Source: a virus (Duplodnaviria; Caudoviricetes). From it: a stretch of DNA of 64,000 bases. The notes under the pieces were generated by a model that saw nothing but the letters and a program-made list of their open reading frames with translations, was not told the DNA's origin and did no database searches. The position numbers were made by a program, and so were the translations under genes. Below, piece after piece: positions 1,992 to 61,733 of the stretch. The DNA lies in IMG/VR virus record IMGVR_UViG_2896201746_000001, positions 32,001 to 96,000 of that record; one strand, given 5' to 3'. Each line of letters starts with the position of its first letter. Position 1 is the stretch's first letter.

Positions 1992-2172
1992 AGGTTCCTC
2001 ATGAGGAAGCGCAACCAGATGGTTGCCTTATATTCACCGCTAACTTATAATTTGGGGCCTTTAGGGGTCAAGCGGAAACGCTGGAGCAATTGCTTAATTG
2101 CTCAATTGCCCTATGTACGTTGCGCGATGATAATGTGACAGTCGAATCAAGCGCTTGAGAGGTGATGCTGCG

Positions 2173-4035
2173 ATGCCGATCATCGCGATGAACAATGTCG
2201 GAGCGAAGCTGCTGGGCGCGGACGAGCGCGCGATCGCCATCGTTTCCGACGCGCTGTCGTATGACGACGAGTCCGCCAAGCGCCGGAGCGGCATCTTCGG
2301 CCAGCTCAACTCCAAGCGCACCTTCCTGCGGTTCCCGGAGCTGATCTGCGAGGCCGGCTTCGTCCCGGTGATCCAACAGGCGCTGGCCGAGGCCGGCTAT
2401 GCCGTCGCCATCCATGACCAGCGCAACGCCCTCGACTGCCAGGGTCCGGCCATCGACCTGCAGAACCCGACAGGTTGGGAAACCTGCGACGACGGCAAGC
2501 AGTACCCGCTCTATGGCGGCTATCTCGACGGCATCGAGCTGCGCGACTACCAGGCCAACGTCGTCGAGACCTTCGTGCTGGAAAAGCGCGGCATCATCCA
2601 GGCCGCGACGGGAGCCGGCAAGACCGAGTGCGCCGCGGCCATCATCAAGCGCGTCGCCCGCCCCGCCCTGTTTCTCACCCACAAGCTCGATCTGGTCGGC
2701 CAGACCCGGCTGCGCTTCAAGAAGCGGCTCGGCATCAACGCCGGCATGATCTCGGAAGGCGAATGGCTGCCGGGCGAAGTCACCGTCGCCACCGTGCAGA
2801 CGATCATGGCGCACTGGACCCGCATCTGGTCGGGCCGGTTGCGCGTGCGCGTCGTCGACCAGACGCTGGTCGGCCCGATCAAGGCCTACAAGCAGGCCAA
2901 GCGCAAGACCGCGGAGCTGAAGGCGGCGGCCGACCGCGCCGAGGCCGAGATCAAGCGCCGCGGCCACTGCTACGTCATCGACCCGGCGACGGCCCCGTCG
3001 AAGAAGCCCCGGCCGCTGACCGAGGTGGTCGAGAAGCGCGTGCGCGGCCTGACCCAGGAGATGGCGCTGGAGACGGCGCGCGGGATCGAGCATGTCGAGG
3101 AGGTGCTGTCGCTGACGCTGGTCGACGAGCCGATCAACCGCGTCATCGAGTTCTTGCGCACCATCGAGCTTCTGATCGTCGATGAAGCCCACAGAAGCTC
3201 TGGGAATGGCTTCTTCACGATCATCAGCAACTGCCCGAACGCCTATTTCCGCGCGAGCCTCACGGCGACGCCGCTGATGAAGGGCAAGCGCGAGGATGAC
3301 CTGCGCCTGATTGCCACGTCCGGCCGCATCATCTGCCGCATCACGAACGGCGAGCTGATCCGCCGCGGCATCCTGGCGACGCCCTACTTCCGCTTCAACG
3401 AGGTGCCGGCCTTCGGCTTCAACGAGCGTGAGGTGCGCCGGGAGATCGTGAAGTCCGGCAAAAAGGTCCAGGCCAGCGCCATCTTCCAGGCGGCCTACCG
3501 GATGGGAATCGTTGAGAACGACGTGCGCAATCGCATGGTCGTGGAGGACACGCAGGAGTTGGTTGCCGAGGGCCGCAAGACGGTCGTGCTGTTTCAGCAG
3601 CAAGATCACGGCAAGCGCATTTACGACATGCTCCTCGCTGCAGGGATGCGCTGTCGGCTGCTCTACGGGGAAGACGACATCGACGTGCGCGAAGACGTCA
3701 AACGGGCGCTGCGGGAGGGCGAGATCGACGTGATGGTCGCGTCGACGATCCTCGACGAAGGCATCGACGAGCCGTGCATCTCCGGCATCGTGCTGGCCGG
3801 CGGCGGCAAGTCGAAGATCAGCCTGTTCCAGCGCGTCGGCCGGTCGGTGCGCAAGAAGACCGGCGAGGAGCTGCGCAAGCTCGGCAACACCGCCCGGATC
3901 ATCGACTACATCGACACCGGCAGTCCGCACCTGAAGAAGCACTCGGCCTTGCGGTTCAAGGCAGTCCGGGAAGAGGACGGCTGGATAGTCGAGGCGATCC
4001 GCATGTACGAGGACAGATACCGGCGGGCGGCTTGA
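2173..4035 (+). CDS. SF2 DEAH-box helicase (UvsW/XPB-like)
   Basis: LRDYQ Q-motif, ATGAGKT, DEAH, TATP, LDEGID, QRVGRSVR. Confidence 0.9.
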   Translation: MPIIAMNNVGAKLLGADERAIAIVSDALSYDDESAKRRSGIFGQLNSKRTFLRFPELICEAGFVPVIQQALAEAGYAVAIHDQRNALDCQGPAIDLQNPTGWETCDDGKQYPLYGGYLDGIELRDYQANVVETFVLEKRGIIQAATGAGKTECAAAIIKRVARPALFLTHKLDLVGQTRLRFKKRLGINAGMISEGEWLPGEVTVATVQTIMAHWTRIWSGRLRVRVVDQTLVGPIKAYKQAKRKTAELKAAADRAEAEIKRRGHCYVIDPATAPSKKPRPLTEVVEKRVRGLTQEMALETARGIEHVEEVLSLTLVDEPINRVIEFLRTIELLIVDEAHRSSGNGFFTIISNCPNAYFRASLTATPLMKGKREDDLRLIATSGRIICRITNGELIRRGILATPYFRFNEVPAFGFNEREVRREIVKSGKKVQASAIFQAAYRMGIVENDVRNRMVVEDTQELVAEGRKTVVLFQQQDHGKRIYDMLLAAGMRCRLLYGEDDIDVREDVKRALREGEIDVMVASTILDEGIDEPCISGIVLAGGGKSKISLFQRVGRSVRKKTGEELRKLGNTARIIDYIDTGSPHLKKHSALRFKAVREEDGWIVEAIRMYEDRYRRAA

Positions 4036-4116
4036 CCGTCATTTCTCTCTATAGAGTATATTTACATATATAATATACTCTTCTTTCTGTTCTCTTCTCT
4101 TGAAGAAACGGTTTTT

Positions 4117-4905
4117 GTGATGATCGAAGTGGATCTGTCTTCCCTTCAAGAGTATGTCGAGAGCGGCGAAAAGCCTCGCCGGGCCGCCAAGCCGAAGCCC
4201 ACGCCGGAGAGCATCCGGCTGAAGGCGCTGGAGCAGCATGCCGGCCCGGAGGAGGAGGCCCTCGACAAGAGCTGCTGGTTCCCCTACCGGCGCATGCCGG
4301 CCTTCGAGCGGACCTGCCTGTTCGTCTTCGTCTACGACGCGGTGATGTCGGCGCATCTGGTCAGCCAGAATGCCGGCAACTTCTCGCTGACCGGCCGGGG
4401 CAAGGTGTCGGTCCTGAAGAAGGCCGAGAAGGAATCGCCATGGTTGTCGGTGAAGGACGGCGTGCCGCAGCTCTCCCGGCGCTGGCTCGGCTACATGAAG
4501 GCCCGCCGGCAGGCCGACGCCTGGTTCATGAGCTATGCCGACTATGTCGCCGGGGCGCTGCACGCCGCCCAGAAGCGCAACTGGCCCTACATGCCCTCGC
4601 CCGGCCAGCTCACCAGCGACAAGCTGCTCGGCCGCGCCGACGGCTTCGAGGAAGCGACGATCCCCTGGTATTATCGCGACCTGTACCGGGACAAGGTGCG
4701 CTTCTGCGACGCCCCCTACTTCCAGGCCCAGCATTACCGCGGAGAGCCGCTGCAGGTCGAGTATCTCGCCTACATCGCCGGAACGCTGCGCTCGACGACC
4801 GGCGACCGGGCTGCCGATCTGTGGGCACGCTATCAGCGCGATGGGAAGATCACGTCTTCCCTATCGTTCGCAGACGCGCTATCACAGTATCGTGTTTTTC
4901 AGTAA
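4117..4905 (+). CDS. Hypothetical protein in replication cluster
   Basis: 262-aa ORF with host-like codon bias. Confidence 0.7.
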   Translation: MMIEVDLSSLQEYVESGEKPRRAAKPKPTPESIRLKALEQHAGPEEEALDKSCWFPYRRMPAFERTCLFVFVYDAVMSAHLVSQNAGNFSLTGRGKVSVLKKAEKESPWLSVKDGVPQLSRRWLGYMKARRQADAWFMSYADYVAGALHAAQKRNWPYMPSPGQLTSDKLLGRADGFEEATIPWYYRDLYRDKVRFCDAPYFQAQHYRGEPLQVEYLAYIAGTLRSTTGDRAADLWARYQRDGKITSSLSFADALSQYRVFQ

Positions 4906-4928
4906 ACGATGACAGAAGGTGACAAGTT

Positions 4929-5180
4929 ATGAATGTTGCCGCGTTCACGCCGGAGCGCCGCTACCCCGTCTCGCGGCCGACGGTCAATGAGGTGGGCGTG
5001 CTGGCCGATCTGAAGACCAAGGGAGCGGCCATCACGGTCAAGCCGAAGGGGCAGACCGAGCTGATCGGCCGGATCGTCTGGTCGGATTTGAACTGCATCG
5101 CCGTCGAGGTTGCGACCGGCCGCGTCCGGGTCTTCAACAAGATCGAGCTGGAGTTCTGGGAATACGCCAGCGCCCACTGA
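4929..5180 (+). CDS. Hfq/Sm-like protein
   Basis: LADLKTKGAAITVKPKGQTELIGRIVWSDLNCIAV...VFNK matches the Sm1/Sm2 pattern of Hfq (L..L+...v.v....l.G.I...D...I.....+.K). Confidence 0.55.
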   Translation: MNVAAFTPERRYPVSRPTVNEVGVLADLKTKGAAITVKPKGQTELIGRIVWSDLNCIAVEVATGRVRVFNKIELEFWEYASAH

Positions 5181-8409: not shown

Positions 8410-8508
8410 CGGCCGAGCCGATGGGGTCATTGCCCTATCGTCTCATTGCTCTATTGACCAATGGGCCGGGCGCTGTCGCCCGGCCCGCGGCGTTTCTAGG
8501 GAACCCCA

Positions 8509-12342: not shown

Positions 12343-12702
12343 ATGACAAAAGTTACCGAGCTATATTTGGTGGAAAAAACCCATCACATCAAAACCTCTG
12401 ACGGAAAAGAATATTACTATGGCAGTCTCCCAATGCAGCCGTACATAAAGTGGGTTGGGCTGAATGGAATAGACAACGAATATATCTATACTTTGCAGAA
12501 GTCTCTCGATGAGACCATTATCGGGTCAATAGTCTTTCGAGAGCTGCCACAAGGCGTCCATTTTGTTGGAGCATCAATTCTGGAGAGTCTTAGGAGACTC
12601 GACAAAGATCAAAGGTATTCGGATATTCTCGATAGGATACCGGCCGAACTTCTTGGGCAGCTTGCGGTAGACAACGCCCATCACAAGGATTTTAAAGGCT
12701 AG
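12343..12702 (+). CDS. Low-GC hypothetical protein (moron-like)
   Basis: AT-rich ORF, RBS TAAGGA. Confidence 0.6.
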   Translation: MTKVTELYLVEKTHHIKTSDGKEYYYGSLPMQPYIKWVGLNGIDNEYIYTLQKSLDETIIGSIVFRELPQGVHFVGASILESLRRLDKDQRYSDILDRIPAELLGQLAVDNAHHKDFKG

Positions 12703-13565
12703 GTCTTCTTCTCGTCTCCAAGGAGGTCGAGCTGCACCGCGTCGACCTTCTTGGCGATCCTGGCCTTCCGCCCGACCTTGTGCCGCTTCACCTCGGCCGC
12801 GGCCTCCTTGAGCGCGTCCTCCTCCTTCGGGAACCAGCGCAGCTCGACATGGGTGATCGCCCGCCCCTTCTTCACCGGCGACACCTGGACATGACAGCTC
12901 GACAGCGCGTCGACCTCGGCGACGGCCGGCTCCAGGCAGAAGCGCCGGAAGTCCTGCCAGCGCTCCATCTTGCCCTTCGGCACGCCCAGCGCCGCGCGCA
13001 GCGCCTCCAGCTCGAACGTCTCGGTGAAGCGCCCGCGCAGGCCCGCCCGCTTCTGGACGATCTCGTAGAGCGCTTGGCTGTATTTCGAGGTCATCGCCAG
13101 CATGACCTGCGCCTGCAACCGACCCCAATGGTCCGACTTCGTGATGATCTCGATCACGGTGTCGGTGAAGCGGTAGTAGAGGTTGCCGTCCGGGTCGTCG
13201 TGGGTGAAGCGCGGGCCGAGGATGTAGTCCCTGTACCAGCCCGGCTTGCCGTCGCGCGTCTGCCGCATCTCGATCTGTACCGAGCGCAGCCGGTCGATCG
13301 TCTCATTGATCCGGTCGGTGCTGTCGTGGTTGCCGCGCAGCAGGCGCTTGGCGATGACATGTTCCTTCTTCTCCGTGATCGTCTCCCAGGCGTTGACGAT
13401 CAGCAGGTTGAAGACGGTGCGGTCATATTGGGTCAGGGCTTCGCCGCCGCGAATCTCAATCAGCTCCCCCGGCTTGGGGAAGCTGCCATCGCCGCCTTCG
13501 TAGGCTAGAAGCGGTTGGCCGACGATCGGCTGGTTGACTGTCCGTGATCCCATGGGGCCGGACAT
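12699..13565 (-). CDS. repA: Plasmid replication initiator (Rep_3 family)
   Basis: MTSKYSQALYE, LRAALGVP..KMERWQDFRRFCLEPAVAEV; adjacent iterons. Confidence 0.9.
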   Translation of the reverse strand: MSGPMGSRTVNQPIVGQPLLAYEGGDGSFPKPGELIEIRGGEALTQYDRTVFNLLIVNAWETITEKKEHVIAKRLLRGNHDSTDRINETIDRLRSVQIEMRQTRDGKPGWYRDYILGPRFTHDDPDGNLYYRFTDTVIEIITKSDHWGRLQAQVMLAMTSKYSQALYEIVQKRAGLRGRFTETFELEALRAALGVPKGKMERWQDFRRFCLEPAVAEVDALSSCHVQVSPVKKGRAITHVELRWFPKEEDALKEAAAEVKRHKVGRKARIAKKVDAVQLDLLGDEKKT

Positions 13566-13599
13566 TACATGGCCGCGCAGCGCGAAGCGAGCGCCAGCC

Positions 13600-14034
13600 C
13601 AATCCCTCACCCTTCAGCGTGGGCAGAATCCTGGGAATCGCCGGCCCCGGCCCGATTCCTCACCTTTGGCCCGCCCAATCTCTCACCTTTGCCCCGGCCC
13701 CATTTCTCACCCTTCGGCCGCCCGATTTCTCACCTTTCGGCACGGCTCGCCGACAAGCGGCCGGAGACGGCGCAAACCGCGACTCCGCCCCATTTCTCAC
13801 CTTTGCCGGCAGCCAGATTTCTCACCCTGGGGATAAGTTGCCCGCCCGATTTCTCACCTTTGCAGGCCCAATAACTCACCAGAATCGGCCCCATTTCTCA
13901 CCAGAATCGGCCAGATTTCTCACCTGAAGCGGTGAATCAGGATTGCGATTCAATGGCTTGCCAGAGCCAAAGTATGAAATAGGAAATTAGAAGTTAGGGC
14001 GGGAGCAATCAGCGCCCGCCCGGTTTCTCACCTT
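13600..14034. repeat. Iteron origin: about 12 copies of ATTTCTCACC(TTT), many about 22 bp apart, plus an AT-rich tract
   Basis: Copies near 13600, 13655, 13677, 13701, 13723, 13791, 13816, 13848, 13870, 13892, 13914, 14022; AT-rich tract 13968-13995. Confidence 0.9.
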
Positions 14035-14299
14035 AGAAGCCCTGTGCGCGCAGCAGGTCGTCGAAGAACTCGCCGATTTCCTTGCCCTGGCTGACCAGAT
14101 CGGCCTTCAGTTTCAAGGCTCGCGAGCGCTCCAGCCGGAAGCAGACGTTAACCGTGTCCTCGGCGAGCAGCCCAGGACGCTTCGTGCGATGACGCCGGCG
14201 GACTTCCTCGGATTCCGGGATCGCTTCCTGCGTCGACGCCGCGGCGGCAGCGCGGGCGCGGGAGGCCATCTCTTCCGGGGTCATTCGGGGCTTAGCCAT
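14033..14299 (-). CDS. ParG-like RHH partition adaptor
   Basis: Flexible Arg-rich N-terminus plus TVNVCFRLERSRALKLKADLVSQGKEIGEFFDDLL (beta-helix-helix); overlaps parA stop. Confidence 0.7.
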   Translation of the reverse strand: MAKPRMTPEEMASRARAAAAASTQEAIPESEEVRRRHRTKRPGLLAEDTVNVCFRLERSRALKLKADLVSQGKEIGEFFDDLLRAQGF

Positions 14300-14924
14300 T
14301 CTTCGTGATCTCCAGGATGCGATCCAGCAGACGGGTGATCTCGGCAGCGCCTGGGTTCTTCGGATCGACGTCCGACAGACCCAGGCCCTCCATTCCGTAG
14401 GCTCCGAAGCCGACACGGTCGCGGATCGGGTCGGCAACGATCGCCTTGCCGCCGCTCAGCCCCGACACCACGATCGGCACCTCGGATTCCTGCTTTTCGG
14501 TTTTGATGCGGTTGGGCGCGACGAGCGGAATCTTGCCGGCCTTGTCGACCACCTCGAAGGTGCGGCCGAACGCGAGATAGTCCGGGCCGGTCGGCTGAAG
14601 GGGGAAAACGACCAGATCGGCGACCGTGACCGCCGGCTTGATCTCGGCTTTCTTACCGGGGGTGTCGATAAGAATGAAGTCCCACTCCTTCGACTGGATC
14701 TCCTTGGCGATCCGCCCTTCCAGCCGCGAAACATCAAGAGCGTGCAGCTCCATGCCCGTCTTGTTCTCGCGCTCCCGGTATAAACCTGCGAGCGTGCCCT
14801 GTGGGTCGATGTCGACCAGGAGCACTTTAAGTCCGCGAGAAACCATCTGAATCGCCAATTCCCAGGCGAGTGTGGTTTTCCCGGCACCGCCTTTGGAGGC
14901 GATGAACGAGACGGCTTTGGTCAT
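14292..14924 (-). CDS. parA: Short ParA (ParF-like, type Ib) ATPase
   Basis: KGGAGKTT, DIDPQG, IDTPG; 210 aa, no N-terminal HTH. Confidence 0.93.
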   Translation of the reverse strand: MTKAVSFIASKGGAGKTTLAWELAIQMVSRGLKVLLVDIDPQGTLAGLYRERENKTGMELHALDVSRLEGRIAKEIQSKEWDFILIDTPGKKAEIKPAVTVADLVVFPLQPTGPDYLAFGRTFEVVDKAGKIPLVAPNRIKTEKQESEVPIVVSGLSGGKAIVADPIRDRVGFGAYGMEGLGLSDVDPKNPGAAEITRLLDRILEITKNG

Positions 14925-15127
14925 ACGATAAGCCTATTGGTCAATTGAGTCATGAAACTAACCTAGTAGGGTTTTCACTAACCCGCATTAGGCTTGTTTG
15001 CCTGTTGAAAGCGGCAGTTATCGCGCTTATCATTCATCAAAGACTGAAGACAGTAAGTTATGACTGTAGGTAGCAAACTACCTATGGTGAGGTCATCGGC
15101 CTGGTGAATCAGATTTGGGTGAAATCA

Positions 15128-15570: not shown

Positions 15571-18159
15571 GTGCCACGCCCGCTGAAAAAGCTGTCTGCC
15601 CGGCCGGCTGAGCCGCTCCCCGAGCTGCCGCCGCTCAAGCGCGAGAGCAAGATGGAGGCGCTGCGCCGGACTGCCGCGATCATCTCCGGCAATTTCGGCA
15701 TCCAGGTCGTGTTCGCCGGCAACCGCGCCTACACCGACTTCAAGCGCATCGTCGTGCCAAGCCTGCCTGACAACGCGCCCGACGATCTGGTCGACGCGAT
15801 CACCGGCTATGTCGACCATGAGATCGGCCATATCCTATTCACCGATCCGAACGAGAAGCGGCCGTTCCGTGAAAAGGATAAGCGCGCCCAGTTCATGACC
15901 AATGCGGTCGAGGACGTGCGGCAGGAGTTCCAGACCGCCAATCTCTACCGCGGCATGGGTCTTAACCTCGACCGCTCGGCGATCTGGTCGATCTCCAAGA
16001 TCCGGGAGAACTGGCAGAACGACGACGCCTACCCGGCCTTCAGCCGGTTTCTCGTTCTTGCAATCTGCTGGTGGCGGGCAAAGGTCGGTGGCCTGCCGGA
16101 AGCCCAGCAATTTCTCGACGACTGCGGCGGCGAGACGCTGAAGGTCGTCAAGCACTTCGCGGCGCGCATCGAGAAGTGGCACACCCTGCCCTCGACGGCC
16201 GCGGCCTATGACGAGGCCAAGGCGATCCTGGCCGAGCTGGACAAGCTCAACCAGCAGGCCAAGCAGCCGCCGATGCCCCCTCCTCCCCCGCCCCCGCCTT
16301 CCCAGCAGCCCAACGAAGAGACGGGTGAGGGTGGCGGCCAGGGCCAGCAGGACGAGCGCGACAGCAGCGGCGAAACCGAGAACGAGGAGTGCTCGTCGAA
16401 CGCCGATCCCGATGAGCCTGTCGAGCAGGACGATGACGGCGGCAACAGCGAGGGCAGCGCCGGCAGCGACAGCGACGAAGAGGCCGAACACGACGAGGCG
16501 TCCGGGGTCGATGACGCCGACGGCGACCAGGGCGAGGGGGAGCAGGATGACGAGCAATCGGCCGGCGGATCCGATCAGGACGATGCTGACGATGGCGATC
16601 AGGGCGGCGATGGTAGAGCCGGCGGCGACGGCGCTGATGAAGGAGCTGACGACGATCAGGGCGATGGCGATGCTGCCGGCCCGGCCGCTTCCGAAGGCGA
16701 CGAAGACGAGGCTGCTGGCGACGACGCCGATGACGGGGACGACGGCTCTGCTGGCGGCGATGCTGATGGCGAGGACGCCGACACCGGCGCAGACGCGAAC
16801 GGCGCTGGAGGCGATGGCGACGCAGATGATGACGACGCTGCGGACGCTGGAGACGACAGCGAAAGCGATGCGGGCGGCGCTGGAGGCGATGCCGGCGAAG
16901 ATGGCGCAGACGGCGAGGACGATGAGGGCGACGCCCCGGCCCCTGGCGATGACGGTGCCGGCGATGAAGATGGCGATGCCGCCGGCGACAGCAACGGCGA
17001 CGATCCGGGAGGCGATGGAGAGGGCGAGGAGGCTGACGACGAGCCGGTAGAGGACAGCCAGGAGGCCAGCGACGGCCGCGGCACCGATGACGTCGCCGAG
17101 GGCGGACCGAGCGGCATGCGCGGCGTGCTCGATGCGCTGTGCGGCGAGCAGAAGCGCGAGGCGCTCGAAAAGTCGTCGACCCTGCACGCCGTCATGCAGA
17201 GCGAGATCGAGGTCGACAGCCGTGCCGTCACCGGCCATCGCGCCTACACCGAAGAGTTCGATCAGATCATCGAGCCGGTCGGCGAGGCGACGCTGGAGAG
17301 CTACAGCCGGGCCTACGACGCGGTGAAGCCCTACGTCAACGTCATTGCCGGCGTGCTGACCCGTGTTCTGCTGTCGCGCACCACCGCGACCACGCTGCGC
17401 GGCCGGCACTCGGGCGCGGTCAGCTTGAATGCGATCAGCCAGCTCCGCGCCGGCCAGTCGAACGTCTTCCAGACCCGCCAGGAGGGCGCGAAGCTCGACA
17501 CTTACGTCGAGCTGGTCGTCGATCACAGCGGCTCGATGGACGGAAGCAAGATCGAGACGGCGATGCAGACCTGCATCGCGCTTGCCGAGAGCCTGGCGAA
17601 GATCGGCATCCCGTTCGGCATCTCCGGCTTCACGACCGGACTTGGCTGCGAAGAGCACGAGGCACAGGACAAAGATCTGTGGCGACGCGCCCGCGATTAC
17701 GTCTATGGCGCGTTTGCCAATCCCGATCTGGCCGACTTCGAGCGGATCGACCCGATCGTCGAGTTCCGCTACAAGACGCCCGAAATCCCGTTCGCCCAGA
17801 TGAAGACCAAGCTCGCGCTGATGCCCGGGCAGATGATGGGGGCCAACGCCGACGGCGACAGCATCTACAAGATCGCCAAGCGCGTCTCCCGCCGGCGGGA
17901 AAGCCGCAAGGTCATCATCGTCATGTCGGACGGCTTCCCGGCCGCGCGCCAGGGCAAGAACATCGAGGGCGACGCGGCCGAGCGCTACATGGCCCATGTC
18001 GCCAAGCTGCTCGCCCGGACGCCGGGCCTGGAGCTGGTCGGAATCGGCATCATGTCGGACGCGGTGAAGCACTACTACCCGCGCTGCGCCGTCATCAACA
18101 ACGTCGCCGATCTGCCGGCCGTGGCGATGAACGAACTCAAACACGCCCTGATGGGGTAA
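15571..18159 (+). CDS. CobT-like vWA protein with long acidic linker
   Basis: HEIGH, NAVED.R metallopeptidase-like N-terminus; D/G/E-rich linker; DHSGSM MIDAS; VMSDG; GIGI. Confidence 0.88.
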   Translation: MPRPLKKLSARPAEPLPELPPLKRESKMEALRRTAAIISGNFGIQVVFAGNRAYTDFKRIVVPSLPDNAPDDLVDAITGYVDHEIGHILFTDPNEKRPFREKDKRAQFMTNAVEDVRQEFQTANLYRGMGLNLDRSAIWSISKIRENWQNDDAYPAFSRFLVLAICWWRAKVGGLPEAQQFLDDCGGETLKVVKHFAARIEKWHTLPSTAAAYDEAKAILAELDKLNQQAKQPPMPPPPPPPPSQQPNEETGEGGGQGQQDERDSSGETENEECSSNADPDEPVEQDDDGGNSEGSAGSDSDEEAEHDEASGVDDADGDQGEGEQDDEQSAGGSDQDDADDGDQGGDGRAGGDGADEGADDDQGDGDAAGPAASEGDEDEAAGDDADDGDDGSAGGDADGEDADTGADANGAGGDGDADDDDAADAGDDSESDAGGAGGDAGEDGADGEDDEGDAPAPGDDGAGDEDGDAAGDSNGDDPGGDGEGEEADDEPVEDSQEASDGRGTDDVAEGGPSGMRGVLDALCGEQKREALEKSSTLHAVMQSEIEVDSRAVTGHRAYTEEFDQIIEPVGEATLESYSRAYDAVKPYVNVIAGVLTRVLLSRTTATTLRGRHSGAVSLNAISQLRAGQSNVFQTRQEGAKLDTYVELVVDHSGSMDGSKIETAMQTCIALAESLAKIGIPFGISGFTTGLGCEEHEAQDKDLWRRARDYVYGAFANPDLADFERIDPIVEFRYKTPEIPFAQMKTKLALMPGQMMGANADGDSIYKIAKRVSRRRESRKVIIVMSDGFPAARQGKNIEGDAAERYMAHVAKLLARTPGLELVGIGIMSDAVKHYYPRCAVINNVADLPAVAMNELKHALMG

Positions 18160-18174
18160 TAGAGGAATAGCTCA

Positions 18175-18354
18175 ATGGTTCAATTGACGGGCCCCGAGCG
18201 CGCGGCCTTGAAGACCGCGCTGCGCAATGAAATCGAGCGCCTGGAGGCGCTGTGCGGCCTTCGGCACGCCCTCCCCTACGAGAGGGAGTCATGGTCCGAG
18301 CAGATCGCTGATTCCAGATCGGCGCTCGCCAAGTTGGAGGCGCTGTCCGCATAG
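18175..18354 (+). CDS. Small helical protein (59 aa) flanked by two 8-bp arrays
   Basis: Manual translation MVQLTGPERAALKTALRNEIERLEALCG...KLEALSA; RBS GAGGA. Confidence 0.55.
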   Translation: MVQLTGPERAALKTALRNEIERLEALCGLRHALPYERESWSEQIADSRSALAKLEALSA

Positions 18355-18491
18355 CTCAATGCAGCAATAGCTCTATTCGGCAATGACTCCATGCGTGAAC
18401 GCGCGGGCACGTCTTCAATTGCCCTCTGGCGCTCGCGCGTGCGATGTTCTATCAGTCAGCGATGATAATAAACCAATAAGGGGTTTGTGTT

Positions 18492-24800: not shown

Positions 24801-25250
24801 GGCATGACCGGCAAGTCGGCGCGCATCATGGCGATCCTGGGTGCGCCGGGCTGGCAGGAGGAGAAGGCCGGCACGATGGGCCAGAACCCCGCCTTCGAGA
24901 AGCTGCTCGACGTGCTGCGGCCGGAGCTGTCGCTCAAGCCGTCCGACTTCTACTTCACCAGCCTGTACCGCTTCCGCAAGCCGCCGCTCGGCTTTGACCA
25001 ATGGCGCGATAGGTCAATTGAGCTATTGCACCATGAGATTGACATCGTGAAGCCGCCACTCATCATCGCCATCGGCTCGGACGTCACCAAGGCGCTGATG
25101 GGCGAGGATGCCAGCGTCATGCGCCTGCACGCCAAGACCGAGCGCTTCAAGGACTTCCCGGTGGTGTTCTGCAAGTCGCCGATGCTGGACGGTGTTGGCC
25201 CGGACGATCTCCGGCAAGTTTCGCTCGCCATCTCTGAGCTTCTTGTCTAA
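21870..25250 (+). CDS. dnaE: DNA polymerase III alpha with degenerate C-terminal UDG-like domain
   Basis: PHP HLHGHS/TDH, GPGRGSAGGS, PDIDTDF, QHAAG, KLDILGL, FNKSHA. Confidence 0.95.
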   Translation: MSIPFHHLHGHSFFSNLLQPDALSSPDDLAKRAASVGLSSICVTDHASIAGVPALLKAAKKHGLKGIVGSELYCTTDPAWRPASKEEGRRDYSHVVALAQNQDGFTELCRLLSKASGEPNFYGKPRNAFADLYETKNLIFTTACAGGVLKRGDADCVLRELVAAVGPERVYLEIQPHQDEGQRLVNARAVHLRDQLGLRLVATQDFHYANPGDNVGHEVLLAVGSQDVWSNPERWRYPVDDLYVKSGTEMLQAFAPWIKSGALDKAHVLEAFESTAIIADRLGFELTNRAISLPKMSDDSRKTLLVMAGEALKRKGLAGDERYVKRLVHEMNVLTEAGFLDYFLILADIIAWAKRNGIAVGPGRGSAGGSLLCYLIGITTIDPIRHGLIFERFFRPGRLDLPDIDTDFEDERRDEVLDYIERKYGKDHVCGVASYTMLKPRGAMKDVGRVFEINHVEINQVTGAIKVPDIQVDDPEAEKAHAEEIFADPAVAGFFRKYPVVEPHVRALTGWMRGTGQHAAGVVISGVPVADLCALLRGKDGRRVSCWDKWQIENMGQMKLDILGLRTMTILRHAAEYVLQRTGRRIVYEDLSLDDPRTLELFDKGDTTGVFQCESHGMREVFKGCKVDRFSIIADVISLYRPGPMKEIPKYQQVQTGQIPATYMHPLLQPILEPTFGTLIYQEQMMEVFVQVGGFDFTEADKMRKICGKKLGPAEFAKHAPPFIEGAKRNGLTEQEAEAIFATMAEFGIYSFNKSHAYAYATIAYWTAYMKANFPAEFWAAHLSCTESSEKLKLAMKDVVKAGMQIDWPNVNTSHATRFVPISDVMIAAPLTAIHGVGEKAAELIAGAREGRIDNQGLARGEARQEKKGIVQFDASRTVAGAFTSAQDFANRIYARVVNKRVTDALQSVGAFPWARPHDDVLTAKRRELMKDLAVDVLTVDTGATLLIDNSTVAALQRIFTVLPVFEQETKMKAVYPGMTGKSARIMAILGAPGWQEEKAGTMGQNPAFEKLLDVLRPELSLKPSDFYFTSLYRFRKPPLGFDQWRDRSIELLHHEIDIVKPPLIIAIGSDVTKALMGEDASVMRLHAKTERFKDFPVVFCKSPMLDGVGPDDLRQVSLAISELLV

Positions 25251-29282: not shown

Positions 29283-30209
29283 ATGACAACGACTCTGCTG
29301 GTCGACGGCAGCAACATCGCCTGGGCGGCGTTCTATGTCGGCGAGACGCTGATCGACCATCTTGGCCGGCCGACCGGCGCGATCTTCGGCTTTCTGCGCA
29401 TGGTGCGCGCGGCGGCCGACCAGATATCCGAGCTGACCGGCGACACGGTCAAGGTGATGATCGCCTGGGACAGCAGCCGCGAGAGCCTGTGGCGGCGCGA
29501 CGTATACCCCGACTACAAGGCGAGCCGCGACACCGAGAAGACGCCGGAGGATCTGGCGAGGCTGGCCGACTTCGGCGATCAGGTGAAGCGCATCCGCCAA
29601 ATCCTGCCCTGCCTCGGCATCACGCAAATCCGAGCCGAGCGCTTCGAGGCCGACGATCTGGCCGGCTGGCTGACCCGGCGCTGGCCGCAGACCCGTTTCG
29701 TGCTGATGAGCGGCGACTATGACTGGCTCCAGCTCGTCAGCCCGACCGTGTCGTGCTGGATCGTCAGCAAGGCCCAGCTCGTCACCCCGCTCAACTTCGC
29801 CGACATCGTCCAGGCCCGCTACGGCGTGCCCCTGACCAACCCCGACCAGTATGTGCGCATGAAGGCGATCGCCGGCGATGACGGCGACGACGTGCCGGGC
29901 GCACCGGGTATCGGCACCAAGACGGCCGGCAAGTATATCCTGGGCGAGCTGGCGAAGAAGAAGGACGGCACGCAGACGGCCAAGGAGCAAGCCATTGTTC
30001 AATGGCTCAATGATCCAATGGGCTACGAGCGCTCGCTCAAACTGGTCGATCTGCGCGACATGCAGATCCCGGCCGAGGCGGTGACGCTGGAGCGCGGCGC
30101 GTTCGACGAGAGCGCCTTCGTCGATGTCTGCATGACCCACTCCTTCGACAGCATCTACAACGACCTTCCGACCTGGATTGTCCCCTTCAAGCTGGCTGCC
30201 GTCTCCTGA
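29283..30209 (+). CDS. 5'-3' exonuclease/flap endonuclease
   Basis: LVDGSN, YKASR, EADD, SGDYD, GDDGDDVPG..GIGTKTA. Confidence 0.92.
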   Translation: MTTTLLVDGSNIAWAAFYVGETLIDHLGRPTGAIFGFLRMVRAAADQISELTGDTVKVMIAWDSSRESLWRRDVYPDYKASRDTEKTPEDLARLADFGDQVKRIRQILPCLGITQIRAERFEADDLAGWLTRRWPQTRFVLMSGDYDWLQLVSPTVSCWIVSKAQLVTPLNFADIVQARYGVPLTNPDQYVRMKAIAGDDGDDVPGAPGIGTKTAGKYILGELAKKKDGTQTAKEQAIVQWLNDPMGYERSLKLVDLRDMQIPAEAVTLERGAFDESAFVDVCMTHSFDSIYNDLPTWIVPFKLAAVS

Positions 30210-30240
30210 CAGGGCGCTGCATCAATAGAGGAATAGCTCA

Positions 30241-34984: not shown

Positions 34985-35430
34985 TCGACACCTTCAGCGG
35001 CCGATACCGCTTTCTCAGCAACTTCGCGCCCTCCCCGATCGTCGCCGTGGGCATCCGCTTTCCGACCGTTGAGCACGCCTTCCAGGCGCTCAAATCGACG
35101 AGCCGGAGCGACTGGGAGAAAATCGCTATGCTGCCGACGCCGGGGCTGGCGAAGCGCGCTGGCCGCGGGCTGGCGCTGCGGTCGAACTGGAGCGAGGTGC
35201 GCGTGGCCGTGATGACCACGCTCGTCCTGCTGAAATTCTGCACCCATGTCGACCTGCAGCGCCGGCTCGTCGCTACCGCGCCGGCTACCCTGATCGAAGG
35301 CAACACCTGGGGCGATCGCTTCTGGGGCGTCTGCGGCGGGGTCGGCGAGAACAATCTCGGCAAGATCCTGATGTACGCCCGCGATCTGGCCGCAGCCGGA
35401 TGCTTGCCGCATACAGCAATGCCCCAATAG
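34978..35430 (+). CDS. NADAR/YbiA family protein
   Basis: FLSNF, FPTVEHAFQALK, KF..H..L...L, EGNTWGDRFWG...G.N.LGKILM. Confidence 0.92.
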   Translation: MVIDTFSGRYRFLSNFAPSPIVAVGIRFPTVEHAFQALKSTSRSDWEKIAMLPTPGLAKRAGRGLALRSNWSEVRVAVMTTLVLLKFCTHVDLQRRLVATAPATLIEGNTWGDRFWGVCGGVGENNLGKILMYARDLAAAGCLPHTAMPQ

Positions 35431-35471
35431 CTCCATTGAGCAATAGCTCTCTAGCCCTCAGCAGGTGGCCG

Positions 35472-35690
35472 ATGGCGATCCTGAAAGAAAGCGACTGGGT
35501 GCGCTAAACCCAGGAGTTCTGTGAAACGAGCATGACCACGGCCGGCATGAACGATCTGCTGAGCCGGCGCGGCAGGGTCATCCGCGTCCACAGCGACGGC
35601 AAGCTCTGGGACATCGACTGGGGCGACGTCATCCTCCAGTCGCCCACCGACTCCTCCCTGCATGTCGTGACCGACCCGCCAACCCGATAG
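35472..35690 (+). pseudogene. Small SH3-like gene with in-frame TAA at 35505
   Basis: MAILKESDWVR*TQEFCE...RGRVIRVHSDGKLWDIDWG; RBS AGGTGG. Confidence 0.5.
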
Positions 35691-35710
35691 CTCCATTGAA
35701 GCATTGCCCC

Positions 35711-36052
35711 ATGGCTGCATTGCTGAATGCCGACCACATGGGCCGGTATGTCGAGGTCTGGCGCACGCTCTCGGCCATGCAGTCGCCGCTCTCGCGCGGC
35801 CGGATGATCTGGCGCTGGCATGACGTGGGCCTTGGCCTCGATCTTCCGGCGGAGCGCCGGTACACGACGCGGCCGGGGCCGGACGGGGAGCTTCGCAGGG
35901 AGCTGCTCTATCAGCGCGACTACGACCTCCATCGCGCCGCCCTGGAGCTGATCGCCGCCGGCGCTCTGCGGGTCGACCATCTTCCGAACGGCGACTGGGT
36001 CTATCCGGACGCCGCGTGCTGGGAGGCGCTGCAATGGGCGGACGGCTGGTAG
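35711..36052 (+). CDS. Hypothetical protein ending WADGW
   Basis: ORF flanked by 8-bp arrays. Confidence 0.65.
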   Translation: MAALLNADHMGRYVEVWRTLSAMQSPLSRGRMIWRWHDVGLGLDLPAERRYTTRPGPDGELRRELLYQRDYDLHRAALELIAAGALRVDHLPNGDWVYPDAACWEALQWADGW

Positions 36053-36104
36053 GCCGATAGAGCGATTGAGCCATCGAGTCATTGAACGATAGACCAATAG
36101 GTGC

Positions 36105-38228
36105 ATGATGAAACTTGTGTCTGTGAAGGCCGAGAATTTCGGCCCCTTCGTCGAAGCCGGCCTTCGTCTCGACGACCGCGGCCTGCTGCTGGTGCAGGGC
36201 GACAACCAGCTCTCCAGCTCGGCCGACAGCAACGGCTCGGGCAAGTCGTCGCTGCTGGAGGCGATCTTGTGGGCCAACTTCGGCCGCACGATGCGCTACG
36301 ACCTGCGCGGCAAGCCGACCGGCGACGAGTACGTCAACAACCGCTTCGGCCCGACGCCGGGGAAGAACTGCCGCGTGACCTGCACCTGGGACATCGACGG
36401 CCGGAAGGTCGAGATCCTGCGCACCCGCAAAGACAAGGCCCTCAAGAACGTCGTGATGGTGTCGGTCGACGGCAACGACATGACCCGCGGCACGATGAAG
36501 GAGACCGACCGGCTGATCGAGGAGCTGCTCGGACTGGACTTCAATGCGTTCGTGCGCTCGGTCTATTTCGACGGCTCGAAGATCGTCCCGTTCCCAACCC
36601 TGACCGACAAGGAGATCAAGGACGTCTTCGAGCGCGTCCTGGGGCTGGACGATCTGTCGAAGGTCGCCCAGGTCGTGAAGGACAAGCTGCGCCTCGCCAA
36701 TGCCAACCTGTCCGGCGTCCAGAACGATCTGCGCCTCGCGCAGGCCCAGCACTCCACCGCGCTGGTCGAGCAGCAGGTCGCCGAGGGGCGGCAGGCGACG
36801 TTCGAGGCCGAGCGCGCCGCGGAGGTCGAGCAGGCCGAGCGGGAGATCGCCACGCTGGCCGGCACCAGTCAGCGCGATGCCGCCGCGATCCAGGCCGATG
36901 ACGACGCGCTGGCCGCTCGGGAGGCCGAGGCGCATGCGAAGCTCGGCAAGCTCCAGCGCCTCGATGACGCTATTGCTCAATGGAGCAATGACCATGCCGC
37001 CGCACAGAGCAGCCGGGCGACGGCCGCGGCGACGCTCAATCATCTGCGCGCCCAGAACCCGGTGCCGCCGACGGCGCTGCTGATGGAGCGCCAGCAGATC
37101 GCCGGCGAGATGGACCGGCTGGCGCGCGAGATCGGCCGGGTGCAGCATGACATCCAGCATGCCGAGGGCAGGGTAGGGACGGCCTGTTCGGAATGCGGCA
37201 AGCCGGTGGAGCAGGGCGACGTCGAGGGCTTCGTCGCGGCGCAGAAGGGCAGGCTGAACGATCTTGGCCGCCAGCACGCCGACCTGAAGCCGAAGCTGGC
37301 CGACGTCGATGCCCGGATCGCCGCCGACGAGCAGACCCAGCGCCAGGCCATCGCCGCGCGGATCGCGACGGCCGAGGGCGAGCTGGGGGCGGCGAACGCC
37401 CGGCTTACGGCGCTGGGCGAGACGAAAGCGAAGCTCGACAGCTTCGCGACGCTGCGCACGGACATGCAGCGGGTGCTCGCGGAGCTTTCAGGAGCGCGTT
37501 CTCGTCTCGCTGACGAGCGACACGCAGCAGAGCGCGCGAACGCATCCATCGAAGCCCTGCGCGCCCGGATCGCAGACGTGCGCGCCAAGCCCAACCCCTA
37601 TGTCGAGGATGCCGGCCGTTGGAAGACGCGCATGGACGAGCTGGCAGCGCAGATGACCGGGCTGGAGGAGCGGGCGGCCGGCTACGAGAAGGAGATCGGC
37701 CAGCTCAAGGTGCTCGACGACGCCTACGGCCGGACGGGGCTGAAGGCGCATATCCTGGAGACGGTGACGCCGGTGCTGAACGACCGCGCCAACGACTATG
37801 CCCAGCGCCTGGCCGACGGCAAGGTGAAGATCGAGTTCGCGACCGTCACCCGGCTCAAGGACGGCACGCTGGCCGAGCGCTTCTCGGTGAATGTCGAGAA
37901 TGACGAAGGGGCAGGGGCCTATCACGGCCAGTCGTCCGGCGAGAGCCGCAAGATCGACCTCGCCATCGCGCTCGCCATGTCCGATCTCGTCGCCGCCCGT
38001 GCGTCCAAACCGATCGACCTGTTCGTCGCCGACGAGATCGCCGAGAGCCTGGATCCGACCGCGGTGGAGCGCGTCGTCGGGCTGCTGCAGGACAAGGCCA
38101 AGGAGCGCGGCACGATCCTCTGCATCAGCCACGCCGACATGCGCGACCTGATCCCGGACATCGTCACGGTGCAGAAGACGGCGGCCGGCTCGCAGATCAT
38201 CGACGGCGCGATCACGGGAGGGTGGTGA
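36105..38228 (+). CDS. sbcC: SbcC/Rad50-like SMC ATPase (ends ITGGW)
   Basis: NGSGKSS, coiled coil with CSECG hook, SSGE signature, VADE. Confidence 0.93.
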   Translation: MMKLVSVKAENFGPFVEAGLRLDDRGLLLVQGDNQLSSSADSNGSGKSSLLEAILWANFGRTMRYDLRGKPTGDEYVNNRFGPTPGKNCRVTCTWDIDGRKVEILRTRKDKALKNVVMVSVDGNDMTRGTMKETDRLIEELLGLDFNAFVRSVYFDGSKIVPFPTLTDKEIKDVFERVLGLDDLSKVAQVVKDKLRLANANLSGVQNDLRLAQAQHSTALVEQQVAEGRQATFEAERAAEVEQAEREIATLAGTSQRDAAAIQADDDALAAREAEAHAKLGKLQRLDDAIAQWSNDHAAAQSSRATAAATLNHLRAQNPVPPTALLMERQQIAGEMDRLAREIGRVQHDIQHAEGRVGTACSECGKPVEQGDVEGFVAAQKGRLNDLGRQHADLKPKLADVDARIAADEQTQRQAIAARIATAEGELGAANARLTALGETKAKLDSFATLRTDMQRVLAELSGARSRLADERHAAERANASIEALRARIADVRAKPNPYVEDAGRWKTRMDELAAQMTGLEERAAGYEKEIGQLKVLDDAYGRTGLKAHILETVTPVLNDRANDYAQRLADGKVKIEFATVTRLKDGTLAERFSVNVENDEGAGAYHGQSSGESRKIDLAIALAMSDLVAARASKPIDLFVADEIAESLDPTAVERVVGLLQDKAKERGTILCISHADMRDLIPDIVTVQKTAAGSQIIDGAITGGW

Positions 38229-38946: not shown

Positions 38947-39022
38947 TGCCGGCCCATTGGGTAATACGGCAATAGCGCAATTGACCTATTGGGTCATAGC
39001 CCAATACAGCAAGGACCGAAAC

Positions 39023-42710: not shown

Positions 42711-42832
42711 GCAATGGCGCAATAGCTACATGGAGCCATGTAGCTATTGCCCTATGCGCGGCTGCCAACCTGCGCTGGATCTTCTCGGGTGCTGGCCCTA
42801 GTGTCCGCGCCCGAGCTACCAGGGAGCCAGTC

Positions 42833-51444: not shown

Positions 51445-51854
51445 TCCGGAGTTGGTCAGAGCATGCCCGCGACTTTGCCGACGAAGCGCATGAGGCTGTC
51501 CGCAAGGTCGCCGAGCGGCACGGCATTCACGTCACGATGAAGCCGATCGCGCCCAGCCGCGGCGCGACGCTGACCCTGACGATGAAGGCGCATCTCACCG
51601 AGCCGAAGCTCGACGGCATGGCCGGCGTCTTCCTCGGCACCCACCGTCAGCTCGGCCTGGACCGCGAGGATCTCGGCCGGCGCTTCGCCTGGAAGGGCAG
51701 GGTGGCGAAGCTGGTCGGCGCTGACTTCGGCGAGCGCCCGCTCATTGCCCAATTGCCCGATGGCTCAATGGAGCAATTGACGACGGACGAGTTCAAGGCG
51801 GGCTGCCGCGCGCTCGCCGACGGCGAGATCGAGCAGCTCGACGGCGACTGGTGA
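51441..51854 (+). CDS. Hypothetical protein ending LDGDW
   Basis: GLDREDLGRRFAWKG phage-type segment. Confidence 0.65.
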   Translation: MIRSWSEHARDFADEAHEAVRKVAERHGIHVTMKPIAPSRGATLTLTMKAHLTEPKLDGMAGVFLGTHRQLGLDREDLGRRFAWKGRVAKLVGADFGERPLIAQLPDGSMEQLTTDEFKAGCRALADGEIEQLDGDW

Positions 51855-55824: not shown

Positions 55825-55838
55825 AGGAGGTTCGCTCA

Positions 55839-56434: not shown

Positions 56435-56556
56435 TAAGCGCTGACATCTTCCCTTGAAGATGCTTAGCTAAGCTGGTAGGTTAGCTTCGATTCCCTTCCG
56501 GGCTAATCCGGAGAGCAATCTGGAGAAGTCCGGCCAACCCAACCCAGCGAGAGATC

Positions 56557-56766: not shown

Positions 56767-56855
56767 TCTACACCACCGGCGATGAATGATCGTGCGCGGC
56801 GGCAGCTTATGCGCGAAGATCATTCATCGCTGACAAACACAAAGCAGGTGTGTTT

Positions 56856-57185
56856 ATGACCATCACGATGCCCCTTACCTTCGAGGTCGTCGAGCCGCCC
56901 AGGCTCGACCCGGAGAACCGCCAGTTGATCGGCCATGTCCGGATCAACGGCGTCGATCATCACGTCACGCTGATGCAGGTCGTCGATCTGGCTGCCGCCG
57001 AGGAGGACTCGGCCGGCGAGGATGTCGAGAGCTTCGACACGACCTTCGGCGACCAGGCCCCGGCGCATGAGCACTCCAGCCGGTTCCAGGCGCTGCAGGA
57101 CTTCGAGAGCACCGGCGAACCCTTCCGCACCGTCCCGGTCGATGGCCGGGAATACGTCTGCGTCATCACCCCCTTCACGGCGTGA
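56856..57185 (+). CDS. Hypothetical protein
   Basis: Codon bias; operator motif upstream. Confidence 0.65.
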   Translation: MTITMPLTFEVVEPPRLDPENRQLIGHVRINGVDHHVTLMQVVDLAAAEEDSAGEDVESFDTTFGDQAPAHEHSSRFQALQDFESTGEPFRTVPVDGREYVCVITPFTA

Positions 57186-57745: not shown

Positions 57746-57823
57746 CAGTAGATCGCGGACGAAGGAGAGCCTTCAAGAAACCCTTTTAATGAGCTATGCT
57801 CCAACCTCAGGGACTCGTCTGGA

Positions 57824-60720: not shown

Positions 60721-61200
60721 TAGAGATAACCGACTTTGGAGCAGATGCGGTGGTAATGAAATGAGAAAGCTAAAATAAGGCTGGCCAATATCACTATCCT
60801 TTATCGAGCTTATAAAATAAATCTCCATCATCTTGAGTTGTCAGGAAACCTCCGCTTATGGAATGCTTCCTGGCAACTCAAGATAATATTGAAAATATTC
60901 TTTCTGGCTAGTTAGGCTGAATGCCGCCCGCAAGCCATCTTTCTGGTTCAGTTCACAGCTAGCGTTGTTTGTGAGTGCCCACTGCGCGTTTCTAGTGTGA
61001 GCGTAACTTCGATTCGGTCTGCGTGGAGAAGGTACAAGTCAAGTCGCTGCGCAAAATCGCCGAAGAGCTGGGCATGTGCCGCAGGCTCCTGGCAAAGCGC
61101 ATCTGATTTCTTCTCCGTAAGCGGCGCGCTTTCATTTCCGCGGAAGCGCGCCGCATGCGACTATCATTCATCGCTGATCGACAACGACGAGGAATGAGCG

Positions 61201-61479
61201 ATGAACGTCGAAGCCCTGCAAGCCGCCCTTCAGCGCGCGATCCGCCTGACTGGCGACGACTTTCACCTCACCCTGACCGGCACCGGCGCATACGTCACCC
61301 ACTGGACCCGCCCCGCGGCCGACCTCTTCGAGGACTGCACGGCGGTCGCGAGCGGCAGCATCCCGGAGTGCCTGGCCGCGCTCGATGCCTATGTCGACGT
61401 CCTCGTCTCCCAGCGCGCCAAACCCACGGCTCCCGCCCGCCCGGCCAGCGCCCGGGCGCTCGATGCCGTCTTCGCGTAA
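61201..61479 (+). CDS. Hypothetical protein
   Basis: RBS GAGGA; operator motif upstream. Confidence 0.65.
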   Translation: MNVEALQAALQRAIRLTGDDFHLTLTGTGAYVTHWTRPAADLFEDCTAVASGSIPECLAALDAYVDVLVSQRAKPTAPARPASARALDAVFA

Positions 61480-61502
61480 TGAGCCAATGGAGCAATAGAG
61501 CA

Positions 61503-61733
61503 ATGGCACTCGATCCTGTTCGCGCAGCCCGCGTCCGTCGCATGCTCCCCGACAAGACAACCTGGCCCGGCACCGTCCTTGCGATGAAGCGCATCGAGGA
61601 GGGCTGCATCGTGGAGTTCGGCGATATCCGCAGTTCCACCGCCCCGTTCTTCATCCACCTCGGTCCCGGCCGCGCGCCGCTGCGCTTCGATACGGTCGAC
61701 GAGCTGATCGCGGCCGGCTGGGCGGTGGACTGA
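61503..61733 (+). CDS. Hypothetical protein
   Basis: MALDPVRA...FDTVDELIAAGWAVD. Confidence 0.65.
   Translation: MALDPVRAARVRRMLPDKTTWPGTVLAMKRIEEGCIVEFGDIRSSTAPFFIHLGPGRAPLRFDTVDELIAAGWAVD

Follow-up and report, generated by a model that had tools for sequence, protein, structure and literature searches.

Dispersed arrays of 8-bp units in a tailed phage-plasmid as candidate binding sites for a small partition protein

Described partition systems with short repeat arrays

Dispersed arrays of short degenerate units, repeated every 8 bp, were analysed in a 64,000-nucleotide stretch of a tailed-phage genome (Duplodnaviria; Caudoviricetes). This stretch, the window, comprises bases 32001-96000 of the 112,120-bp contig (64% G+C) of IMG/VR record IMGVR_UViG_2896201746_000001, and positions are given in window coordinates unless stated otherwise. 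Weighing sequence, structure models and analogy with described systems, we lean slightly towards the arrays being cooperative binding sites for dimers of P0001, a protein of 88 amino acids (aa) encoded immediately downstream of parA, which would be the centromere-binding partner in a type Ib (ParF/ParG-like, delta/omega-like) partition system.

On plasmid pMF1 of Myxococcus fulvus, the type Ib system parCAB encodes a 75-aa ParB that binds arrays of 8-bp AGATGTCT units, as seen by electrophoretic mobility shift assay and footprinting (PMC3235114). Six iteron sites (ItA-ItF) of about 3-7 degenerate, near-palindromic units each are located beside the par genes and dispersed from them, some within open reading frames (ORFs) (PMC3235114). 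The likeness to the phage is one of arrangement and unit geometry, with a small (in the phage, candidate) ParB beside a small ParA and AT at a fixed 8-bp phase. The scale differs: pMF1 is an 18.6-kb plasmid with six sites in ∼6 kb (PMC3235114), whereas the phage has 17 arrays over 71 kb of 112 kb. The unit sequence differs too, and the phage arrays are found at DNA-metabolism genes and before packaging genes. Dispersed centromere-like sites are also named for N15 and RK2 (PMC3235114).

The omega protein of the Streptococcus pyogenes plasmid pSM19035 is a ribbon-helix-helix (RHH) protein that binds as one dimer per short repeat to six parS arrays of 7-10 contiguous repeats in either orientation (PMC9499535). 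These arrays overlap promoters, making omega both a centromere binder and a global regulator, and at least 4 contiguous repeats are required for full activation of the ParA ATPase (PMC9499535). The phage is comparable in this respect, with at least 4 units in 16 of its 17 arrays. In contrast, the unit of this Firmicute plasmid is a non-palindromic 7-bp sequence (WATCACW), and all of its sites are at promoters (PMC9499535). The phage period is exactly 8 bp, four phage arrays are within genes and several occupy gaps between co-directional genes. The arrays were not assigned to the omega/heptad parS class, since their period is 8 and a period of 7 gave only four runs of 3 units in the window.

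ParG of TP228 had been cited in a sequence-only reading of the window as binding boxes with an 8-bp period, which agrees with the published description of 4-bp boxes and 4-bp spacers, one dimer per box (PMC3130281). In the ParF-ParG/parH system (PMC3130281) a small ParA precedes a small protein of the RHH type (in the phage, a probable one) whose flexible N-terminal tail carries an arginine motif, boxes recur every 8 bp in direct or inverted orientation, and an operator (OF; in the phage, a candidate one) is directly upstream of the ParA gene, all of which resembles the phage locus. It differs in that its 20 boxes form one block upstream of parFG and its box is ACTC with AT-rich spacers (PMC3130281), whereas the phage arrays are dispersed and their units have AT in the box centre and G+C-rich flanks. 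P0001 also has no match to the Pfam ParG family.

Several centromere sites had likewise been cited for N15; four inverted-repeat sites are described (PMC7205306), and they are cited elsewhere as dispersed (PMC3235114). The N15 sop system is similar in that a phage is kept as a plasmid with several separate centromere sites (in the present phage, candidate ones) on its genome (PMC7205306). It differs in being type Ia, with SopB a large spreading ParB and not an RHH protein, and in having a single inverted repeat as its site (PMC7205306). Assignment of the phage to the N15/F-type (type Ia) class, which has a large ParB/SopB with a helix-turn-helix domain and single inverted-repeat sites, was rejected, the candidate partner of ParA being an 88-aa protein and the sites 8-bp arrays. 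Tandem 8-bp sites also occur in the MetJ system, in which RHH dimers bind palindromic 8-bp metboxes cooperatively, two to five in a row. MetJ, a chromosomal repressor of metabolism that works with a co-repressor, plays no part in partition and would be relevant here solely as a model for a possible binding mode.

For pMF1 and pSM19035 it is already published that a small type Ib partition protein binds dispersed arrays. Since pMF1 already has the same arrangement, the idea is less new than the sequence-only reading assumed, and the phage-plasmid adds a larger instance to a kind already known. No paper describing the arrangement in phage-plasmids was found in a literature search that left most subscription journals outside its reach.

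Arrays and plasmid module of the phage

All 16 arrays previously listed in the window were reproduced with the same starts and unit counts. A scan of the whole 112,120-bp genome, which the sequence-only reading had proposed, gave 17 arrays; the 17th is at genome position 105296 (window coordinate 73296), beyond the window. Genes were called with a custom script based on G+C content at third codon positions (GC3), so that start codons are approximate and the non-coding share is crude. The arrays of the window, to which no strand is assigned, are as follows.

2087..2118, 4 units, flanked by divergent genes and overlapping a promoter-like TTGCCC-N17-GATAAT 37 nt before the helicase gene (2155)
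8419..8466, 6 units, in intergenic DNA; the gene at 8509, with a weak primase zinc-ribbon match, is 43 nt further on
14926..14957, 4 units, starts 2 nt from the parA start codon, in the region common to parA and the divergent XRE-type gene at 15104
18149..18188, 5 units, extends across both the stop codon of the cobT-like gene and the start (ATG) of a 59-aa ORF
18349..18396, 6 units, followed after 56 nt by a copy of the putative promoter/operator motif (18452) and after 96 nt by the cobS-like gene
24999..25038, 5 units, in dnaE, 212 nt before the stop; a promoter-like TTGACA-N16-CATCAT follows directly
29992..30023, 4 units, within the 5'-3' exonuclease gene
30223..30246, 3 units, occupies the gap before recA, with the recA ATG (30241) in the last unit
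35409..35448, 5 units, intergenic
35685..35732, 6 units, where two small ORFs meet
36055..36110, 7 units, occupies the 52-nt gap before the SbcC-like gene and contains its ATG (36105) in the last unit
36962..36993, 4 units, within the SbcC-like gene
38954..39009, 7 units, follows a stop codon at 38946 and precedes the RuvC-like gene (probable ATG 39023; script start 38957)
42712..42759, 6 units, starts 2 nt past the stop codon of the gene for the ribonucleotide reductase small subunit
51742..51781, 5 units, within ORF 51423-51854; 117 nt upstream of a copy of the putative promoter/operator motif (51898)
61477..61508, 4 units, starts on the stop codon of ORF 61201-61479

The AT dinucleotide recurred with an exact 8-bp period in 16 runs of 4-7 units in the window, whereas the other periods from 5 to 13 gave no run longer than 4 units and just two of that length, both at period 9. 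The CNATNG unit originally proposed was retained in part: 47 of the 81 window units fit it strictly and the remainder do not. The invariant feature is AT at unit positions 3-4 (invariant by construction), accompanied by C at position 1 (64 of 86 units) and G at position 6 (65 of 86), and the consensus is C-A-A-T-[G/T/A]-G-[C/A]-[T/G]. Units of one array are degenerate and not identical, yet AT, C1 and G6 are kept. A weight matrix was derived from the arrays themselves, which makes it circular for the arrays and leaves the controls valid; its top 4-unit score was 36.7 in the genome, 11.0 in the reversed genome and at most 15.3 in 20 first-order Markov genomes. No array beyond the 17 was detected when the whole genome was scanned with this matrix. 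Four further AT runs of 3-4 units, at 12317, 38648, 53142 and 60699, are unlike the arrays and were not detected with it.

Bacterial DNA was searched with a five-unit AT pattern, which has 19 matches in the phage genome and 0 in the backward control. Among 101 alphaproteobacterial genomes searched, those listed of at least 3.3 Mb had at most 9 matches each, and the densest small genome had 38 in 1.1 Mb against 43 in its own control. The 906,760 bases around 80 other alphaproteobacterial ParA genes contained 6 chance-like runs of at least 4 units, none of them array-like. Nothing of comparable density was seen in simulated or host-type DNA, with alphaproteobacterial genomes serving as a proxy for host DNA, and the sequence-only reading stood on this point. 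A chance origin of the arrays was ruled out by the other periods, the reversed sequence, the Markov simulations and the bacterial DNA.

Position 1 of the unit and the complement of position 6 did not differ in composition (chi-square p = 0.74), and the spacer dinucleotides CT and AG occurred 18 times each. Unit and spacer statistics were nearly strand-symmetric, although almost all genes are on one strand. Near-symmetry together with exact 8-bp phasing points to a small dimer reading double-stranded DNA rather than to an RNA signal.

Four of the 17 arrays are within genes (dnaE, exonuclease, SbcC-like and ORF 51423-51854) and the others are in non-coding DNA. The in-gene arrays had been said to force AT-rich codons, and this was borne out: GC3 in the four arrays was 7/14, 5/11, 5/12 and 9/14, compared with 0.88-0.91 in the remainder of the genes (Fisher p = 1.4e-4, 3.6e-4, 3.4e-5 and 0.035). 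The drop, caused by A/T-ending codons, supports selection acting on the array DNA itself.

Natural variation was assessed by comparing contigs of four public metagenome runs over 34000-40000, which holds five arrays. A 10-kb contig of run X2 had 115 differences in ∼4,576 aligned bases. Of the 11 indels listed among the relatives in the four runs, 0 were inside the five arrays. In runs X2, X6 and X7, 34988-35424 (437 bp) is replaced by 23-29 other bases. The replacement extends to the third unit of the array at 35409, and the new bases restore two in-register AT units, leaving five units as before. These 437 bp may have been inserted recently into this genome or deleted from the relatives. No close phage relative was found, and ParA gave none in IMG/VR; a DnaE search gave one locus at 34% identity, and searches of phage and plasmid collections with dnaE DNA and ParA protein gave distant matches only.

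The arrays share the replicon with a plasmid module. The contig ends overlap, consistent with a circular assembly. Virion genes were found for the large terminase, portal, scaffold, major head protein, tape measure and J-type tail fibre. DNA-metabolism genes encode DnaE, a DnaB-like helicase, RecA, an SbcC-like ATPase, a 5'-3' exonuclease and a RuvC-like resolvase, and further genes encode ribonucleotide reductase, thymidylate synthase and CobT/CobS-like proteins. The module comprises the following features.

14292..14924, minus strand, parA, small Walker-type ParA of 210 aa (AAA_31 1.2e-16; CbiA, MipZ, ParA)
14033..14299, minus strand, P0001, 88 aa, candidate centromere-binding protein with an Arg-rich disordered N-terminal tail and an RHH-like C-terminus (∼46-85)
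13600..14035, no strand, at least 12 iterons with core GATTTCTCACC at 22-24-bp spacing; probable plasmid origin, repeat unlike the 8-bp arrays
12699..13610, minus strand, Rep_3-family plasmid replication initiator (Rep3_C 8.4e-12, Rep3_N 1.9e-8)

With virion genes and a plasmid replication and partition module (Rep_3, iterons, ParA) on one replicon, the element is, judged by its predicted genes, a phage-plasmid. Family matches of ParA begin at residue 3-7, its best relatives are annotated as ParA/ParF-type partition ATPases, and it is small, as in type Ib systems. The P0001 gene overlaps the end of parA by 8 nt. A repeat array adjoins the par genes, also as in type Ib systems: the 4-unit array at 14926 starts 2 nt from the minus-strand parA start codon at 14924, where the sequence-only reading had placed an array. 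The divergent XRE protein gene is at 15104-15442. The arrays were considered as Rep iterons and rejected, the iterons being a separate repeat with 22-24-bp spacing that adjoins rep. Just past rep, a 43-nt direct repeat is present at 11702-11744 and 12034-12076 (93% identical, copies 332 bp apart).

About half of the arrays are in short gaps between genes, where they follow a stop codon at once or take in the next start codon, and some fill the whole gap. Five of the 17 are within ∼160 bp of a promoter-like site or a copy of the putative promoter/operator motif, and the 17th stops 8 nt before such a motif, TCAGTCAGCGATGA, ahead of the packaging genes. Nucleotides 18157-18178 and 30223-30244 are identical at 21/22 positions (AATAGAGGAATAGCTCAATGG); here the array units also provide a GAGGA ribosome-binding site and an ATG (59-aa ORF and recA, respectively).

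The TCAGTCAGCGATGA motif is itself dispersed. It is mostly preceded by TA and followed by cATAt or TAAT, a -10-like element (e.g. 15530, 18452, 49179, 32595 and 39635), and has ∼50 matches genome-wide at up to 3 mismatches, some of them false, in the replication and virion regions alike. From its sequence it looks like the phage's own promoter/operator signal, separate from the 8-bp arrays. The arrays were rejected as the main phage promoter element, since TCAGTCAGCGATGA marks promoter regions genome-wide and its distance to the arrays ranges from 8 nt to several kb.

Other features of the window were recorded. The CobS-like AAA_5 protein (18492-20699) contains an intein (Hom_end_hint, Hom_end and LAGLIDADG_3 matches), and its N-terminus has a weak, sub-threshold ROS/MucR match. 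An 83-aa protein encoded at 4929-5180, directly before the DnaB-like helicase gene, has a weak, sub-threshold Hfq_1 match (E = 0.0018). A low-GC3 island at 52178-60720, probably acquired cargo, encodes an RHH_4 protein, two LuxR/GerE-type helix-turn-helix proteins and an Eco57I-like N6 methyltransferase (57824-59641). The two LuxR/GerE-type ORFs (52178-52651 and 55839-56207) were picked by eye among the small ORFs scanned.

The candidate reader and a related replicon

P0001 had been described as a ParG-like RHH protein. The RHH part of this description agrees with an RHH-like model and with RHH-dominated fold matches of low Z (4.5 or less), whereas Pfam gave no match, ParG included, and by sequence P0001 is not a member of the ParG family. 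A HMMER search returned four small homologues (P0122-P0125) and one weaker match, a 318-aa protein. The alignment was made from P0001 and the four small homologues, leaving out the 318-aa protein. A word-based search for homologues returned P0001 itself only. In the alignment an RRxRSKR-G motif is conserved within a variable tail and is followed by T-x-N/Q-V-C-F-R-L/I-E and by two helix-like segments.

With the 5-sequence alignment, AlphaFold predicted helices at 58-71 and 75-85, preceded by an extended stretch at 46-57 (mean predicted local distance difference test score 71). When 48,161 PDB representatives were searched, residues 43-88 aligned with successive RHH proteins. The top matches were NikR, RelB, DinJ and the PutA RHH domain (Z 4.2-4.5), followed by omega (1irq, Z 3.6), Arc (Z 3.4) and ParG (1p94_B, Z 3.3, root-mean-square deviation 2.7 Å over 46 residues); the MetJ-DNA complex 1cma was also among the matches (Z 2.8). 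These matches are individually weak but consistent. On the model, P0001 is a probable RHH domain with a ParG/omega-like tail.

Metagenome contigs were scanned with the P0001 family alignment, giving three loci (L239, L240 and L241), of which L239 and L240 are too short to hold DNA upstream of parA. L241 is a 4.3-kb contig of 57% G+C with the order ParA-RHH-iterons-Rep_3, as in the phage. Its ParA, RHH protein and Rep_3 are 38%, 42% and 52% identical to those of the phage, and its iterons have a GGTGAGAAA core in common with the phage iterons. Three arrays were present. The first has 7 units in the 8-bp AT register, one of them imperfect, and ends 5 nt before the parA ATG; the others have 6 units at 1588 (∼200 bp upstream) and 5 units at 928 (∼900 bp upstream). 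Among 2000 sequences simulated for comparison, 4 had one run of at least 5 units and 0 had two or more. The phage array matrix scored the three L241 sites at 16-20, a score of 16 being reached by 1 of 80 control ParA loci; these were taken from a Walker-A pattern scan of contigs, the best of the 80 loci listed being 33% identical.

Only 3 of the 139 predicted phage proteins (ParA, the RHH protein and Rep_3) have an L241 homologue. Since Rep_3 accounts for the iterons, the RHH protein would be the simplest reader of the arrays, on this comparison of gene content.

Pattern scans of IMG/VR returned mostly perfect tandem octamer microsatellites, unrelated to the phage arrays. Octamer arrays of other kinds were noted in three phage records. 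G001 (L136 and L137; 38,164 bp, an IMG/VR provirus record) has at least 25 arrays of 8-bp CCATTGAG and its complement CAATGGCT, often as convergent pairs, which fill almost all intergenic gaps; its genes share one strand, and some ORF calls cross arrays. No P0001 homologue was found in G001. In G002 (locus L009), five arrays of YGATTKAG and its complement AAATCACT are present in 6 kb, and L156 (67% G+C) has three arrays of near-identical CAATAGGG units. The octamer arrays of these records may be a different phenomenon.

Proposed mechanism, competing explanations and significance

If P0001 reads the arrays, the type Ib system would belong to a plasmid module (parA, RHH gene, iterons, Rep_3) aboard a tailed phage. 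A P0001 dimer would bind at every degenerate palindromic unit with the invariant AT at its centre, and neighbouring dimers would be 8 bp apart, so that 3-7 of them would coat each array. Such a mode is known from ParG on its boxes (PMC3130281) and from the pMF1 ParB on AGATGTCT arrays (PMC3235114). The array adjoining parA would double as centromere and autoregulatory operator, and the other 16 would offer additional loading sites, enlarging the partition complex, damping nearby transcription, or both.

Several results weigh against P0001 as the reader. P0001 matched no Pfam family at E ≤0.01, nor at 0.1 in a batch scan, and no PHROG family; no PDB sequence matched it even as a profile, ParG 1p94 included. 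No homologue was found in IMG/VR, PLSDB (3 queries) or 401 + 3 alphaproteobacterial genomes, which indicates rarity in those sets and not absence. The single-sequence AlphaFold model is one long helix and uninformative. The best VIA Z, 4.5, is under the trust level of the tool for a single match, and Foldseek gave nothing below E = 3.5, which is not significant, with Arc or AmrZ in 3 of 5 entries. A second RHH protein is encoded in the window (RHH_4, 53167-53502, 5e-17). Co-occurrence of the RHH protein and the arrays comes from one independent replicon, L241, and the stretches examined of G001, G002 and L156 have 8-bp arrays and no P0001 homologue. Unit positions 2 and 5 are incompletely symmetric (p = 0.01). 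An array distribution specific to the early region was also considered and rejected: all 17 arrays are in the 71-kb non-virion part (p = 0.0005 by length), but this part has 88% of the non-coding DNA, and allowing for that gave p = 0.12, which is not significant.

The arrays could instead be operators of another DNA-binding regulator unrelated to partition, such as the RHH_4 protein, an unrecognised small phage protein or a host factor. The strength of the RHH_4 match, the lack of family assignments for most small phage proteins, the five arrays close to promoter-like sites or motif copies and the weak fold evidence for P0001 all speak for such a regulator. It is nonetheless unlikely, given that L241 has the same array geometry while its proteins in common with the phage are limited to ParA, Rep_3 and the P0001-type protein, and that an array adjoins parA in both replicons. 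A common host factor is further opposed by the lack of similar array density in the 101 alphaproteobacterial genomes, taken as a proxy for the host. An explanation without any dedicated binding protein, in which a selfish or slippage-driven tandem octamer fills gene junctions, would account for the position of about half of the arrays, exactly in short stop-to-start gaps, and G001, with its CCATTGAG arrays in both orientations in nearly every intergenic gap and no P0001 homologue, offers a parallel. We regard it as distinctly improbable: the phage units are degenerate yet keep AT, C1 and G6, there are no inverted array pairs, four arrays are kept within genes at a codon-usage cost, no indel was seen in the five arrays compared and unit number was kept across a rearrangement, and the link to the parA start is specific and recurs in two replicons. 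The phage arrays were not placed in the simple-sequence/hairpin class of G001, for which near-identical units, frequent inverted array pairs in intergenic gaps and variable length are characteristic.

Action at the level of mRNA, as translation-initiation or RNA-protein signals, is suggested by GGAG/GAGG and ATG within several units, by two arrays whose last unit holds the start codon of recA or of the SbcC-like gene, by the recurrence of the 21/22-nt stretch with GAGGA and ATG at 18157 and 30223, and by the weakly Hfq-like protein at 4929-5180. The strand symmetry of unit and spacer statistics, in a genome with nearly all genes on one strand, and the presence of arrays within genes, after stops far from starts and upstream of the minus-strand parA make such a role very improbable.

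Binding of the arrays by P0001 could also have a regulatory side. It is conceivable, if doubtful, that P0001 is a genome-wide switch as well, coating the 17 arrays to keep the lytic DNA-metabolism programme down during plasmid inheritance and thereby tying segregation to the lysis-lysogeny state. The arrays concerned would be those on the recA and SbcC-like start codons, those before the RuvC-like, helicase and cobS-like genes, those inside the dnaE, exonuclease and SbcC-like genes, and the one that ends 8 nt short of the packaging-operon promoter motif. In-gene arrays would then be roadblocks or extra anchors of a multi-site partition complex.

The principle is established for pMF1, pSM19035 and TP228, and no new mechanism is involved; the value of the phage lies in its scale, its setting and its use as a clean test system. 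ParB clamps spread along DNA, whereas RHH centromere binders do not. A 112-kb replicon may use many scattered landing pads to build a large enough partition complex, and the in-gene arrays, kept at a codon-usage cost, offer a direct handle on this idea through synonymous recoding. If P0001 does read the 17 arrays, the phage would illustrate, in nature and on a large scale, how a single RHH protein ties the inheritance of a plasmid to many phage genes.

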